Shown: positions 3,312 to 32,689 of the stretch, piece by piece
How positions within the stretch are numbered: position 1 is the stretch's first letter
Layout: every line of letters begins with the position of its first letter
DNA from: a bacterium
GTDB lineage: Bacteria; Patescibacteriota; Minisyncoccia; Phycocordibacterales; Phycocordibacteraceae
Assembly: GCA_023267755.1 (NCBI GenBank)
Contig: JAHFMR010000002.1
Span: forward strand, 42,463-106,462
Direction of reading: 5' to 3'
Length of the DNA stretch: 64,000 nucleotides
Notes under the pieces: generated by a model
Database searches by the model: none
The model's input: only the letters and a program-made list of their open reading frames with translations
What the model was told of the DNA's origin: nothing
Made by a program: the position numbers and the translations under genes

Positions 3312-5129
3312 ATGGCACTCCTCGATTTCCTCAACAAGAAGAAAGAAGAAGCTCCTTCCATCCTGCCGGTATTGCCGAAGGATATCTACAATAAGGGTGC
3401 ACTTGACCTTATCGACACCATCGCCCCGACAGCACTCAAGGTGAGTCCGCGTGAGCTGGAGCTCGGCGAGAAGTTTGTTCGTGCCTTCTACACAATCTCC
3501 TATCCACGCTATCTTTCTGACAGCTGGTTCTCACCGGTCATCAATCTCGATAAAATGCTCGATGTTTCTATCTTCATCCACCCCATAGACACCGAGCAGG
3601 CGTTGCACACCTTTCAGAAGAAGGTCGCTGAATATCAGAGCCAAATTAACGAGCGCGAAGCAAAGGGGCTCGTGCGCGACCCTGCTCTCGACACCGGATA
3701 TCAAGACCTCGAGAGTCTCCGCGACAGCTTGCAACAGGCCCAAGAAAAACTTTTTGACGTCGGGCTGTATCTCGCACTCTACGGCGACACTAAGGAGGAG
3801 ATAGAGAAGACCGAAGGGAACATTCGTGGCCTTCTCGACTCGAAGCTGGTCTACACCAAGCCGGCACTCTTCCAACAAGAGCAAGGCTTCCGTTCTTGCC
3901 TCCCACTCGGCACTGACGAGCTCCTCGTCAACTCCAAGCTGAACTCCTCACCGCTTTCCTCCATCTTCCCCTTTGTTTCCTTCGACCTCACGAGCGACCG
4001 CGGCATTCTCTATGGGATAAACAGACATAATTCTTCGCTCATTCTCTTCGATCGTTTCTCCCTTGAGAACTACAACTCGGTCGTCTTCGCGAAGTCAGGC
4101 TCCGGCAAGAGCTATGCCACTAAGCTTGAGATTATCCGCTCGCTTATGTTCGGTACCGACGTCATCGTCATCGACCCTGAACGCGAATATGAGCAGCTCG
4201 CTGAAGCGACCGGCGGACGCTCGTTCCATATCTCACTCTCCTCCGAGCACCACATCAATCCATTTGACCTTCCGCCGGTGAAGGAAGACGAGGACCCGAA
4301 GGATATTCTGCGTTCTAATATCATCAATCTCGTTGGGCTCTTCCGCATTATGCTCTCCGGTCTCTCGCCAGAAGAAGACGCGATTATTGATCGTGCGGTG
4401 AGCGAGACATATGCGCTTAAGGATATTACTGGCGATACTGACTTTACCGGTGCCGAGCCGCCGCTTCTCTCTGACTTCGAGCAAGTGCTCTCGGGGATGG
4501 AGGGAAGTGCTTCACTCCTCGAACGCCTTTCCAAGTACACCCGCGGCACGTGGGCAGGATTCCTCAATCAACCGACCAATATCGATATCAAGCAACAGTT
4601 TGTGGTCTTCTCGGTGCGCGATATGGAGGATGAACTGAAGCCGATCGCGATGTATATCCTCACGCACTATATCTGGAACGCGGTCCGTCACGAGTTGAAA
4701 AAGCGTCTCCTGATTATCGACGAGGCGTGGTGGATGATGAAGAGTGACGACACCGCAAGCTTCCTCTACAGCCTCGCTAAGCGCGGCCGCAAGTACTATC
4801 TCGGCGTCTGCACGATTACTCAGGACGTCGAAGACTTCCTTAAGAGCCCGTATGGTCGCCCGATTCTTACCAACTCATCGCTCCAACTTCTCTTGAAGCA
4901 GTCGCCCACCACTATCGATGTTCTCCAGAAGACATTCAACCTTACCGACGAGGAGAAGTATCTCCTGCTCGAAGCGGGGGTGGGGGAAGGGCTCTTCTTT
5001 GCCGGACTGAAACACGTCGCTATAAAGGTCGTCGGAAGCTACACCGAGGATCAGATCATCACCTCTGACCCCTCACAGCTCCTCGCGATAAAGAAGGAAA
5101 AGGATCGCCATGCCGCTGAGAAGAGCTAA
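3312..5129 (+). CDS. virB4: VirB4/TrbE/CagE-family type IV secretion ATPase
   Basis: It has a Walker A motif (VVFAKSGSGKSY), a Walker B/DEAW-like motif (LLIIDEAWWMM) and the C-terminal architecture of VirB4-like conjugal-transfer ATPases. The start is taken at MALLDFL because the upstream in-frame extension overlaps the preceding gene. Confidence 0.85.
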   Translation: MALLDFLNKKKEEAPSILPVLPKDIYNKGALDLIDTIAPTALKVSPRELELGEKFVRAFYTISYPRYLSDSWFSPVINLDKMLDVSIFIHPIDTEQALHTFQKKVAEYQSQINEREAKGLVRDPALDTGYQDLESLRDSLQQAQEKLFDVGLYLALYGDTKEEIEKTEGNIRGLLDSKLVYTKPALFQQEQGFRSCLPLGTDELLVNSKLNSSPLSSIFPFVSFDLTSDRGILYGINRHNSSLILFDRFSLENYNSVVFAKSGSGKSYATKLEIIRSLMFGTDVIVIDPEREYEQLAEATGGRSFHISLSSEHHINPFDLPPVKEDEDPKDILRSNIINLVGLFRIMLSGLSPEEDAIIDRAVSETYALKDITGDTDFTGAEPPLLSDFEQVLSGMEGSASLLERLSKYTRGTWAGFLNQPTNIDIKQQFVVFSVRDMEDELKPIAMYILTHYIWNAVRHELKKRLLIIDEAWWMMKSDDTASFLYSLAKRGRKYYLGVCTITQDVEDFLKSPYGRPILTNSSLQLLLKQSPTTIDVLQKTFNLTDEEKYLLLEAGVGEGLFFAGLKHVAIKVVGSYTEDQIITSDPSQLLAIKKEKDRHAAEKS

Positions 5130-5790
5130 GGTCGAGCCTGAGCCGCCGGTGATGACCTGGAGGAAGGCCGCACCTGTCCTCGCAGTAGCGGGCATCTTCG
5201 ACTTCCTGCGTCTCCTCTGTATCTTCTTCTGGTTCCTCGGGCCGGCGCTCGCAGCGATTTACTGCGTTAACAAAGTGAGTGGGTGGGTGGGGTCACTATG
5301 GGGATTAACCGCTACAGTGTGCGCCGCGACGTCTGGTGCCGCTGGCATTGCCGCCTCGGAAATAACCATACCGCTCGGTGCCATTCTCGCTGACGCGGCC
5401 GCCCTCATCGGCTTTCTCACGCTCGGGATGATTATTATTATGAGTAATAAGCGCATTCTGAAAACCGTCACTTCAGCCCCGCTCCAGTTCACCGCGGCCT
5501 TCGGCGTGAGTGCTATTCCTTTTATCGGCTCTGTCTTGCCTGCTTTCACCTTCATCCTCTGGCGACTGTATCGAGGACAGATTCGTGTCGAAAAAGCGGC
5601 CCATAAAAAATGGGGGGAGGAGACGGCTGCTGCCAGAAAGGAGACACGGAATCAGCAACAAGCGCAACTACTTCAGCAGCAGGCAGTCATACAGGCACAG
5701 ACAGCACAAGAGGCGGCCAATGATGAGGCTTTTGCTCAAACAGAAAATGAAGAAAACATATCCCCTGAAGAAGAGCCGTTGGCGGCCTAA
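5110..5790 (+). CDS. Hypothetical polytopic membrane protein with a Q-rich C-terminal tail, likely a T4SS-like locus component
   Basis: It has 4-5 TM helices and a C-terminal QQAQLLQQQAVIQAQTAQ low-complexity tail. It overlaps the virB4 stop by 20 nt, indicating operonic coupling. Confidence 0.55.
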   Translation: MPLRRAKVEPEPPVMTWRKAAPVLAVAGIFDFLRLLCIFFWFLGPALAAIYCVNKVSGWVGSLWGLTATVCAATSGAAGIAASEITIPLGAILADAAALIGFLTLGMIIIMSNKRILKTVTSAPLQFTAAFGVSAIPFIGSVLPAFTFILWRLYRGQIRVEKAAHKKWGEETAAARKETRNQQQAQLLQQQAVIQAQTAQEAANDEAFAQTENEENISPEEEPLAA

Positions 5791-28624: not shown

Positions 28625-29152
28625 TTATTGTTTTATCCATCCTAAGAAATGGAAGTCGTTGTAATAATAGGTTCCGCTTGAACGCACCCAATTAATTTTC
28701 TTACTAACATTATGACCTTGAACGTATCGAGCGTTGTAGTCAACTCCAGAGTTAAAGTCGAAAGGGAAGATGCCCCCACCTCTGCCGCCAGGGACCACCT
28801 CAAAGTCATCAGGAGATACTAGATTCGAATTCAGATTCATTCCTCGAGCTTCATCGAATGAAATCTCACGACTTTCATCCCGAGTGACGTCATACAGGAA
28901 CAATCTTGATTCGGTTATTGTTCCAGTTGGGGGTTGATTTTTCTTTTCATTTTGTACCAACACACCATTCTGGACTACATATTGTTGACCGCCGTTATAG
29001 TAATAATTGTCACCGCCGGTTGCGTACAAGAAGTTGAATCTTGGTTGAATAAAGAGTCCTGGCAGATAGATGCTGCCGGCAACGAATATAATCATCAGCA
29101 CAGGGATAGCCATTCCTAGAACCAGAGACACATTCTTCTTTATGTATTCCAT
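28625..29152 (-). CDS. Hypothetical membrane-anchored protein
   Basis: It has a single N-terminal TM and an Asn/Tyr/Gly-rich ectodomain. Confidence 0.5.
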   Translation of the reverse strand: MEYIKKNVSLVLGMAIPVLMIIFVAGSIYLPGLFIQPRFNFLYATGGDNYYYNGGQQYVVQNGVLVQNEKKNQPPTGTITESRLFLYDVTRDESREISFDEARGMNLNSNLVSPDDFEVVPGGRGGGIFPFDFNSGVDYNARYVQGHNVSKKINWVRSSGTYYYNDFHFLGWIKQ

Positions 29153-29179: not shown

Positions 29180-29253
29180 ATTTTTTATGTGCGCCCGGAT
29201 GGATTTGAACCATCGACCCACGGCTTAAAAGGCCGCTGCTCTACCAGACTGAG
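29180..29253 (-). tRNA. tRNA-Lys (anticodon TTT)
   Basis: The hand-folded cloverleaf has a gcgcccg/cgggcgc acceptor stem, a cttttaa anticodon loop and a ggttcaaatcc T-arm. Confidence 0.85.
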
Positions 29254-29381
29254 CTACGGGCGCGAGTGAGGAAAAGAGAATGAGTGGCCTCAGTCATTCT
29301 CTTTCTCCGAACGAGCGCACAGTATGGTAGTCCATACGGGCGCGCTCATTTTCGTAATCTACTCTTTTTGTACCGTTTTTC

Positions 29382-31231: not shown

Positions 31232-31239
31232 TCTACTTG

Positions 31240-31311
31240 TGCTCCCACGAGGAATCGAACCTCGATCTCAGGCTTCGGAGGCCTACGCTCTATCCGTTGA
31301 GCTATGGGAGC
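31240..31311 (-). tRNA. tRNA-Arg (anticodon CCG)
   Basis: The cloverleaf has a gctccca/tgggagc acceptor stem, a ctccgaa anticodon loop and a T-arm cgagg-ttcgatt-cctcg. Confidence 0.8.
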
Positions 31312-31334
31312 AGTACAAAAACGATATCACCAAT

Positions 31335-32018
31335 TTAATGCCTCTGCTCAATTCGCGACGCAATCTCATGTCCGAGGGCAATCATTTCCCGTTGGATGAC
31401 ATTGGAAGAGTAATGCAGATTGCAGATGCCGTAAAAGTTTTTGCGGTAGCTTTTTCTGCGCCCGCTACGAGGTTTCAGATAAATTTTCCAAAACTGCGAA
31501 GCAGGAACCTTAAGTTTTTCAGACCAATATTCGCGCACTTCTTCGGGATTGTGGTAGTAATGGATTTGTAAACCGACGCGGAAGCGTGTTTCATCGATAG
31601 AATAATGCTTGCGTAACAGGGCGATAAACAAGCAGACAAGTTTTGGGTCCGTGTTCGTGAATTTCATATTATTATCTGTTTTGCCACCTTCTCCCCAGTA
31701 GAGCATCGCGAGTAGAGATTTCCCGACATCTTCCCGGTGCACAGGGATGGAGTTAGCGAGCTTTTTTGCGGTACGGTTGGCTGTCTCGAAGCGCAATTCT
31801 TTATTACGCCGTATGACGATAAGAGCGGCCGCACGAGCTTTCTTTAAATGTGCGATTTGTCGAGAACGATCTGGCTTTCTTCCGGCCTGACTCGACCAGA
31901 CGGAAAGAGTACTTTTCGGAATACCAAGAGCTTTCTTGATTTCAGCGTAAGTTTTTCCATTTTCAATTAACTTCAGTGCCTTCTTTTTAATCTCCTCGGA
32001 ATATCGTGCTCCTGCCAT
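31335..32018 (-). CDS. HTH-domain protein with a LAGLIDADG-like motif (putative homing-endonuclease-like protein)
   Basis: It has an N-terminal HTH (KKALKLIENGKTYAEIKKALGIPKSTL). A single LAGLIDADG-like motif KSLLAMLYWGEGGK is followed by the helical segment NTDPKLVCLFIALLRKHY. It is flanked on both sides by tRNA-Arg genes. Confidence 0.5.
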   Translation of the reverse strand: MAGARYSEEIKKKALKLIENGKTYAEIKKALGIPKSTLSVWSSQAGRKPDRSRQIAHLKKARAAALIVIRRNKELRFETANRTAKKLANSIPVHREDVGKSLLAMLYWGEGGKTDNNMKFTNTDPKLVCLFIALLRKHYSIDETRFRVGLQIHYYHNPEEVREYWSEKLKVPASQFWKIYLKPRSGRRKSYRKNFYGICNLHYSSNVIQREMIALGHEIASRIEQRH

Positions 32019-32128
32019 AAATCCATTGTATAAGATTTATGTGCCGTGAGTATATAGCTACGTTCAATATTGTGGATATCAGTAGAATTACTGAACGATG
32101 AGAGCAGTGCTCTCTTTATACTACCTTG

Positions 32129-32200
32129 TGCCCCCGCGAGGAATCGAACCTCGATTACGAACTCCGCAAGCTCGCGTCCTATCCGTTGAACGACGGGGGC
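32129..32200 (-). tRNA. tRNA-Arg (anticodon reads GCG, unusual for bacteria)
   Basis: The cloverleaf has a gcccccg/cgggggc acceptor stem and a ttgcgga anticodon loop. Its D-loop (aacggata) and T-arm are identical to those of the tRNA-Arg(CCG) 0.9 kb away. Confidence 0.65.
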
Positions 32201-32215
32201 AATAGAGAATGTATA

Positions 32216-32689
32216 TCAGAACCCGAGCCAAGCCGCCACCAGGTCAGAGAAGGAATGGTGGTGTTCGTCCTCGTCGACGTGCTGGAGGAAGTAGGTGTAG
32301 ACCAAATCTTCATCGACATCGTTCAGTGGGATGATGAGATGTGGTGAGAGCCAACTCATCGTTTTAATAGAAATTATTGAAGGGAGTTCACCCTCAACAT
32401 CTTCGAGTACTGAGAAGGACAGCATACGTTCAAAGGGGTGGAACTCGTCGCCGATAAGGATCCCAGTTTCTATGAGCCGGAAGCGGTGAACAGAAGGTTC
32501 TTTGGCGGCGTGGAGCGCGAGTGCCGCCGTTGCGACGACGATAAGGACAGCGAGGAGATAATTACCGAAGAGAATCGAAGCGATGATGCCCGCAATAGCG
32601 ATGATGCCGAGTGCCCAATACCAATCACCGCTCTTCGGGTTGTAGTCGTATTCCTTTCCTTCCCACTCCGCGAGAGTGTTGTTAGCCAT
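32216..32689 (-). CDS. Hypothetical membrane protein
   Basis: It has two N-terminal TM helices and an acidic C-terminal domain (DEDEHHH). Confidence 0.45.
   Translation of the reverse strand: MANNTLAEWEGKEYDYNPKSGDWYWALGIIAIAGIIASILFGNYLLAVLIVVATAALALHAAKEPSVHRFRLIETGILIGDEFHPFERMLSFSVLEDVEGELPSIISIKTMSWLSPHLIIPLNDVDEDLVYTYFLQHVDEDEHHHSFSDLVAAWLGF

Follow-up and report, generated by a model that had tools for sequence, protein, structure and literature searches.

We analysed a 64,000-nucleotide stretch of a Patescibacteriota genome (assembly GCA_023267755.1, contig JAHFMR010000002.1, positions 42,463 to 106,462; hereafter the window) and identified in it a 227-aa gene, inserted between two tRNA-Arg genes, that we are inclined to regard as a free-standing homing-endonuclease-type selfish gene borne neither by an intron nor by an intein. 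Directly observed were the anatomy of the locus, a family-wide linkage to tRNA genes with subfamilies specific to particular tRNAs, presence/absence polymorphism, a clean insertion junction, a linked tRNA allele, decayed copies, and homologues on phage-like contigs. The arrangement given in the initial annotation, in which two minus-strand tRNA-Arg genes with anticodons CCG and GCG flank the gene, was confirmed by ARAGORN, the Rfam tRNA model RF00005, and open reading frame (ORF) calling, from which the tRNA and ORF coordinates were taken (Table 1). The G+C content of the ORF is 45.5%, compared with 54% for the window and 56% for the flanks of the ORF, and a family search of the window found a single copy.

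Association of the gene family with tRNA genes

Full-length relatives of approximately 220–235 aa number at least 140 and derive almost all from Patescibacteria. A protein identical to that of the window occurs in metagenome SRR14366756. A search with the C-terminal domain recovered 4,932 cluster representatives at a threshold of E<=1e-3, of which 3,195 also passed E<=1e-10; the family clusters are currently labelled 'hypothetical', 'HTH domain protein', or 'transposase-like'. Scanning of species-representative genomes yielded at least 531 loci, and 80 of these were taken into the locus analysis (L numbers denote fetched loci). A tRNA gene follows the ORF in 80 of these 80 loci and starts at most 87 nt from the end of the conserved domain in all 77 full-length homologues. 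Where the tRNA is encoded on the same strand (n = 72), the distance of the stop codon from the first tRNA base ranges from −36 to +60 nt, with a median of 0.5, and in 35 loci the ORF terminates within the tRNA gene. Given the tRNA density of the window, such proximity would be expected by chance for about 1% of genes.

A neighbour-joining tree of the family divides exactly by the adjoining tRNA into Trp(CCA), Val(GAC), Ala(GGC), and Arg(CCG) clades and a large Arg(GCG) clade. The Arg(CCG) clade comprises the window gene and those of L007–L010 and L014, and in its sister subfamily a homologous gene is located directly in front of tRNA-Arg(GCG). Some loci carry extra family copies ahead of tRNA-Tyr(GTA) or tRNA-Ser(GGA). 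In five loci, tRNA-Arg(GCG) is inverted relative to the ORF and still abuts its 3′ end (Table 1); the conserved feature is therefore adjacency on the DNA, not co-transcription, which is weakened as a cause of the tRNA linkage. The inversion in these five loci is precise, and the reading frame of the ORF continues across the inverted tRNA.

Occupied and empty sites

The gene order of the window, tRNA-Arg(GCG), gene, tRNA-Arg(CCG), and rpsT, is shared by four Kaiserbacteria-type genomes (L007/L001, L008, L010/L004, and L014). In L013, L016, and L012, a sister gene (46–48% identical) precedes tRNA-Arg(GCG), and tRNA-Arg(GCG) and tRNA-Arg(CCG) are directly adjacent. The hosts of these three loci are as close to the window as that of L007: identity of neighbouring proteins to those of the window is 58–85% in the three loci and 71–81% in L007. 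In an unbiased sample of 80 relatives, picked through the neighbouring S20 gene regardless of the presence of a family gene, none of 10 Arg(CCG) sites and two of 29 Arg(GCG) sites were occupied. The two tRNA genes lie just 5–37 nt apart in L120, L121, L125, and L165, which shows the adjacency without insert for which the initial annotation had proposed a check, and no gene remnants were found in empty alleles. The tRNA pair is ancestral and adjacent in genomes without the gene, which rules out a recent tRNA duplication by the gene; the suggestion that the gene had mediated duplication of tRNA-Arg was not borne out.

The insertion junction was delimited by comparison of the empty allele L120, in which ataagacac^AAATTAGTGTAGTATCG... 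separates the GCG from the CCG tRNA gene, with the occupied allele L008, in which aaaagacat, the insert, and ...gcagTAAATTAGTGCTATC... occupy this interval (^, junction). Flanks common to both, among the few comparable alleles, are ...aagaca(c/t)^ and ^AAATTAGTG. The stop codon of the gene arises at the insertion junction, and TAAATTGGTGATATCG, which is kept after the stop in occupied alleles and also in empty L120 (there AAATTAGTGTAGTATCG), marks its 3′ side and is a putative extended −10 promoter of tRNA-Arg(CCG). Neither a target-site duplication nor terminal inverted repeats were found at the L120/L008 junctions, and the check for flanking repeats proposed in the initial annotation returned none in the window; the locus is a clean insertion without duplication. 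The AAATT(A/G)GTG...TATC element left beside tRNA-Arg(CCG) resembles, as judged from its sequence, the extended −10 promoter of this tRNA. The insert brings along a conserved upstream block, TCCACAnnATTGAACATAG..., and a TATAAT-like box about 6 nt ahead of the ATG, which are putative promoter/operator elements.

Linked alleles, divergence, and decay

The tRNA-Arg(CCG) allele travels with the gene, not with the host: it is 90–94% identical to that of the window in all occupied loci, at host S20 identities of 52–75%, compared with 64–72% in most of the empty loci from close hosts (S20 73–80%). Two exceptions, L012 and L129, are empty yet carry the linked allele and may represent gene loss. The window-type gene is 59–63% identical in all hosts, at neighbouring-gene identities of 71–81% (L007) or just 30–52% (L008, L009). 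Gene phylogeny is incongruent with the host, the clades tracking the tRNA. Decayed copies include that of L050, with two in-frame stops, and several that have lost the N-terminal third, and the G+C content of the gene is lower than that of its flanks in all 72 loci compared. Of the initial proposal of a mobile gene that targets a tRNA locus, the insertion, the tie to tRNA genes (77/77), and the patchy presence are real, and mobility itself is probable.

Full-length relatives (25–32% identity) were also found in tRNA arrays (at most 26 tRNAs in a locus) on IMG/VR contigs 21–498 kb long, the viral status of which is the database's call together with a few phage-type neighbours. Among the flanking genes are those for a terminase/PhoH-like ATPase, an RNA ligase, and an HNH endonuclease. 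A tblastn search of annotated GenBank phages with the window protein and the best viral copy gave no match. The arrays that hold homologues also hold HNH endonuclease and T4-type RNA ligase genes (L096:7994-8683, plus strand; L101:5999-6988, plus strand), so that several nuclease and tRNA-repair functions cluster there.

In L002/L009, the upstream side of the locus is rearranged and the pair of ORF and tRNA-Arg(CCG) is intact. The tRNA-Arg(GCG) gene (L009:1699-1773, minus strand) is inverted, 3.2 kb away, and beside a large serine recombinase gene (L002:1-713); a 1005-aa fn3/LCCL protein is encoded at L002:817-3834.

Domain structure and predicted fold

The N-terminal helix-turn-helix (HTH) domain noted initially was recovered with Pfam (HTH_Tnp_1, E=4e-7; HTH_23, E=3e-5), and HTH matches were the only ones returned for the window protein by searches of Pfam, NCBIfam, and PHROGs and by a single-sequence search of PDB, as well as for 70 family members by Pfam. 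AlphaFold2 models were obtained for the full protein, built on 70 homologues (pLDDT 93), and for the C-terminal domain alone (pLDDT 91.7, pTM 0.84). The predicted layout is the HTH, a helix at residues 51–90, and then a1(96-110)-b-b-a2-b3-aX-b4-basic loop-b5-a3. Residues E110 and G111 of the LAGLIDADG-like motif (Table 1) close the helix formed by residues 96–110, exactly at the helix-to-strand turn, as in LAGLIDADG enzymes. Among 87 unique copies, including viral ones, E and G of the motif are conserved in 87 and K in 85, and Tyr is invariant; the Ala-type subfamily has the motif LYLGEGGK and also keeps E and G. Going by this conservation, E110 is a candidate catalytic, metal-binding acid.

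The sole consistent PDB match of the family profile in hmmsearch was I-DmoI, whose second motif (LYVAEGDK...NKN...helix, residues 109–144) aligns with LYWxEGxK...NTD...helix of the family. More than ten independent LAGLIDADG structures top the matches of the C-terminal domain, with I-DmoI-type enzymes and WhiA as the probable closest structural relatives; hhalign gave no significant match of this domain to a single LAGLIDADG_3 protein. The window protein belongs to no curated LAGLIDADG family, and its C-terminal domain is LAGLIDADG-like and probably a very distant relative. The initial assignment as a LAGLIDADG-like homing endonuclease thus holds for the motif with its invariant E and G and fails for recognition by Pfam LAGLIDADG models, none of which matches. 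LAGLIDADG enzymes make site-specific double-strand cuts with 4-nt 3′ overhangs, and those with a single motif are homodimers. Five family ORFs, P0190 (396 aa), P0269 (424 aa), P0276 (441 aa), P0225 (504 aa), and P0329 (560 aa), have a doubled C-terminal domain or two HTH-domain units; these may have arisen through the joining of tandem genes in assembly, or may be true monomeric forms with two domains, which would parallel LAGLIDADG evolution.

Alternative explanations

Several results weigh against a homing-endonuclease-type gene. The window protein has no match at E<=10 to the Pfam models LAGLIDADG_1 (PF00961), LAGLIDADG_2 (PF03161), LAGLIDADG_3 (PF14528), and LAGLIDADG_WhiA, and Pfam LAGLIDADG models are not among the 25 families commonest in 70 members at E<=1. 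The I-DmoI match is marginal (E 0.003–0.01 for the full-length profile and 0.1 for that of the domain), Foldseek searches of PDB with the full-length and domain-only models found no LAGLIDADG structure, and hhalign of the C-terminal domain with a 29-sequence Kaiserbacteria LAGLIDADG_3 alignment gave Prob 1% and E 0.053. In the predicted topology, b3 and b4 are separated by an additional helix, and the first hairpin is short. Alleles of tRNA-Arg(GCG) show no clear linkage to the gene. The G+C content of the gene correlates with that of the host (r=0.90), which points to long residence or to exchange mostly among relatives, and the deviation in G+C content is thus not decisive as proof of a recent foreign origin. 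The clade of the window gene has six members only, the tree carries no bootstrap or other support values, and all sequences behind this analysis are metagenome assemblies.

That the gene is a mobile element with a domain other than true LAGLIDADG is a fairly unlikely alternative given the independent structures among the top matches, the position of the motif at the helix-to-strand transition, and the alignment with I-DmoI, which is residue for residue and includes Y, E, G, and K; in addition, the N-terminal module recurs in a sister gene that likewise flanks a tRNA and has Pfam LAGLIDADG_3 at the corresponding position. We also consider it unlikely, slightly more so, that the protein is a domesticated, non-catalytic DNA-binding factor similar to WhiA, in which a former endonuclease scaffold with an HTH regulates or protects the adjacent tRNA gene and is kept for the benefit of the host. 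Most close relatives manage the same tRNAs without the gene, as the low occupancy of the S20-based sample shows, there are pseudogenes and truncated copies, divergence does not follow that of the host, and homologues occur in tRNA arrays on phage-like contigs. The five loci with inverted tRNA do not fit a fixed promoter geometry, and the acidic residue of the motif is invariant and its Lys nearly so, whereas WhiA, in a paper on its structure, is said to be without catalytic residues.

LAGLIDADG maturases exist, and some LAGLIDADG proteins assist RNA folding. A partnership with the tRNA at the RNA level, as a co-transcribed maturase-like or processing/modification factor, would agree with the ORF being on the same strand as the tRNA and abutting or overlapping its 5′ end in most loci, which makes co-transcription plausible. 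We nevertheless regard it as very unlikely: the inverted tRNAs argue against it, as do the lack of an intron or structured RNA at the locus, the relatives that keep the same tRNAs without the gene, and a promoter-like element between ORF and tRNA in the clade of the window gene. Insertion of the transposase or regulatory OrfA of an IS3-like element between the tRNAs is effectively refuted. Similarity of the N-terminus to HTH_Tnp_1 and to the initial 75 positions of an IS3 transposase model speaks for it, as does the label 'transposase-like protein' that JGI gives to some homologues; however, the NCBIfam IS3 score is 23 bits against a cutoff of 160 bits, there is neither a DDE/RNase H-like catalytic domain nor a second ORF, terminal inverted repeats and a target-site duplication are missing, the gene is single-copy in the window, and in hundreds of species it is found strictly beside particular tRNA genes.

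Proposed mechanism and implications

For the favoured homing-endonuclease-type gene, we infer nuclease activity, dimerisation, an exact target, and repair-mediated copying as follows. The protein would bind DNA through its HTH and a LAGLIDADG-like saddle, and its single divergent LAGLIDADG-like domain would act as a homodimer through the motif helices, with E110 binding metal. The target, where the enzyme would cut, would be the gene-less interval just 5′ of tRNA-Arg(CCG), approximately ...AAGACAC^AAATTAGTG..., or the beginning of the tRNA gene, or both. Repair off a gene-bearing copy would then install about 0.75 kb, comprising the gene's own promoter block and the ORF, and the adjacent tRNA-Arg(CCG) allele would be copied along by co-conversion. 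With the upstream tRNA on one side of the insert and the promoter/5′ end of the downstream tRNA on the other, neither tRNA is disrupted, and the insertion would be near harmless. The Arg(CCG) clade may have derived from the sister Arg(GCG) clade by a target switch to the similar neighbouring tRNA-Arg.

More tentatively, and with considerable doubt, the mobile unit could be a two-part cassette of nuclease gene and tRNA gene that overwrites the resident tRNA allele while spreading and shuttles alleles among Patescibacteria and with their large phages, each subfamily having a nuclease dedicated to a single tRNA gene. Such a system would parallel that formed by SegB (see below) and tRNA arrays, but on the chromosome and with a LAGLIDADG-type enzyme. 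Because about half of the ORFs end inside the tRNA, tRNA 5′-end processing could remove the stop codon and throttle nuclease expression. The cassette possibly has a role in escape from tRNA-targeting toxins or defences.

The window locus is a real insertion with a plausible mechanism and not an annotation curiosity. If the proposed function holds, approximately 5,000 sequence clusters would constitute a previously unrecognised branch of homing-endonuclease-like genes that is missed by curated LAGLIDADG models and that inserts at the edge of tRNA genes rather than into introns or inteins. Such genes would account for some of the tRNA-locus turnover in small Patescibacteria genomes and would connect the tRNA loci of chromosomes with the tRNA arrays of phages. 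They would also provide, for studying or engineering DNA recognition, an attractive natural series of related proteins whose conserved DNA targets differ from one to the next (Arg-CCG, Arg-GCG, Ala-GGC, Val-GAC, Trp-CCA, Tyr, and Ser).

Features of the window locus

Table 1. Positions of the gene, its predicted parts, and associated tRNA genes (window coordinates unless a locus is named)
Feature	Position	Strand	Basis or remark
tRNA-Arg(CCG)	31239-31311	−	ARAGORN; Rfam 70 bits; directly downstream of ORF, same strand
Stop codon TAA (31335-31337) and 23-nt spacer to tRNA-Arg(CCG)	31312-31337	−	Junction comparison
227-aa ATG ORF, HTH + LAGLIDADG-like, putative free-standing homing endonuclease	31335-32018	−	ORF call, homologues, AlphaFold2 model
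C-terminal LAGLIDADG-like domain, residues 91-227	31338-31748	−	
Motif LAMLYWGEGGK, residues 103-113, C-terminal end of helix a1	31680-31712	−	
Long connecting alpha-helix, residues 51-90	31749-31868	−	AlphaFold2 secondary structure
N-terminal three-helix HTH, residues 3-53, Tc3 / resolvase / IS3-OrfA type	31860-32012	−	
109-nt stretch between tRNA-Arg(GCG) and ORF start	32019-32127	−	Mostly part of inserted segment
TACAAT, 6 nt ahead of ATG	32025-32030	−	Putative promoter/operator element
−35/−10-like pair TCCACA-16-TATACT	32049-32076	−	Promoter scan; putative
Block TCCACAATATTGAACGTAG	32058-32076	−	Kept in L007, L008, L010 (cross-locus comparison)
tRNA-Arg(GCG)	32128-32200	−	ARAGORN; Rfam RF00005 55.9 bits; upstream neighbour of ORF
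tRNA-Lys(TTT)	29189-29263		
Inverted tRNA-Arg(GCG) of other loci	L020:5680-5752, L023:5692-5763, L036:5687-5758, L050:5681-5753, L051:2679-2750		

The two tRNA-Arg genes have the D-arm/loop TCAACGGATAG and the T-arm ATCGAGGTTCGATTCCTCG in common, as the initial annotation had described, and a repeat finder gave 73% identity between them over a 94-nt repeat that reaches 18 nt upstream of each gene. This upstream similarity covers positions 31312-31329 and 32201-32218, both of which begin with TGATAT; the T-arms of the two genes are identical in the window genome and different in L007. The shared upstream stretches and T-arms could reflect gene conversion between tRNAs 889 bp apart or common promoter boxes. 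Rfam detected the tRNAs alone at the locus and no other structured RNA nearby, and both tRNAs are unbroken at 73 nt, which rules out a hidden intron or ribozyme. The ORF may be expressed from a leaderless mRNA.

The anticodon of the four-box arginine tRNA is GCG in the window and in the fetched loci that carry one (L007–L071, L073, L083, and about 40 of L120–L199). To our knowledge, an inosine-modified ACG anticodon is nearly universal for this tRNA in bacteria, and GCG in its place may mean that TadA-type A34 deamination is absent in these Patescibacteria. A patch of low G+C content (0.41–0.44) beside tRNA-Lys(TTT) (28625-29152, minus strand) coincides with an ORF of 175 aa that encodes an N-terminal membrane anchor; this ORF is unrelated to the tRNA-flanking family and was rejected as a member.

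Other genes at the same slot and beside other tRNAs

In L122, the slot between tRNA-Arg(CCG) (4997-5069) and tRNA-Arg(GCG) (5487-5559) holds an 87-aa ORF (5087-5350, minus strand) with a GIY-YIG domain (Pfam PF01541, E=2.8e-8), which is encoded on the tRNA strand in a host with 77% identical S20; the slot seems to attract unrelated nuclease genes. Unrelated cargo of 1.0–2.4 kb was observed between the two tRNA-Arg genes in the close relatives L128 (4394-6004, plus strand), L131 (4091-6213), and L148 (4215-4889, plus strand) and comprises a 536-aa membrane protein, 399/425-aa ORFs, and a 224-aa membrane protein. The interval is a general insertion hot spot.

An independent case at tRNA-Lys(TTT) shows that HTH-LAGLIDADG genes colonise tRNA flanks in this group. 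A gene of about 277 aa directly 3′ of this tRNA (L013:9106-9972, minus strand; L016, 288-aa ORF) encodes a Pfam LAGLIDADG_3 domain (E=4.7e-9) and an N-terminal HTH that the hidden Markov model of the tRNA-flanking family recognises at positions 2–85. It is intact in L013 and L016, reduced to a 144-aa remnant in L001/L007 (L001:8012-8446, minus strand), and absent from the window. Elsewhere, L004:5305-6673 (also L005) encodes an RVT_1 reverse transcriptase and bAvd, the signature of a diversity-generating retroelement, between rpsT and ruvA, which are adjacent in the window.

Comparison with known systems

No published description of the tRNA-flanking family was found in the searchable literature, absence from which is no proof of novelty. 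Described from Patescibacteria are LAGLIDADG genes within rRNA insertions and endonuclease genes within tRNA introns (PMC11270868, PMC13011429).

The window gene differs from I-CreI, I-CeuI, I-MsoI, I-DmoI, I-Tsp061I, and the intron-borne I-ShaI of the candidate phyla radiation (CPR) in being located outside an intron or intein. Unlike these LAGLIDADG enzymes, its product fails all Pfam LAGLIDADG models and the profile-profile test, and shows an N-terminal HTH with a long helix, one further helix separating b3 from b4, and a basic loop ahead of the final strand. WhiA is a transcription factor with two degenerate LAGLIDADG domains followed by a C-terminal HTH, whereas the window protein has the HTH first and one domain; the window gene also keeps the acidic motif residue and is patchy and tRNA-linked, in contrast to the conserved housekeeping gene whiA. 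The Pfam domains WhiA_N, LAGLIDADG_WhiA, and HTH_WhiA were found neither in the window protein nor in 70 family members, which places the family outside WhiA. The genes at tRNA-Lys(TTT) share with the window gene the HTH module, contact with a tRNA, and a series of intact, truncated, and absent states among close relatives, but encode a double-motif LAGLIDADG_3 protein recognised by Pfam and are located 3′ rather than 5′ of the tRNA.

By analogy, the closest functional counterpart of the window gene would be SegB of phages T4/T6, encoded beside the phage tRNA array. According to PMC13096335 (citing Brok-Volchanskaya 2008), SegB makes its cuts inside tRNA genes, and the tRNA region is preferentially inherited as a result of its action. 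Both are free-standing nuclease or nuclease-type genes in or beside tRNA genes, the activity being a prediction for the window gene; the adjacent tRNA allele is co-inherited here too, and homologues are found in tRNA arrays on phage-like contigs. SegB is a GIY-YIG enzyme, whereas the window family is LAGLIDADG-like, mostly chromosomal in Patescibacteria, and associated with one specific tRNA per subfamily at nucleotide-level adjacency, with ORFs that often end inside the tRNA gene.

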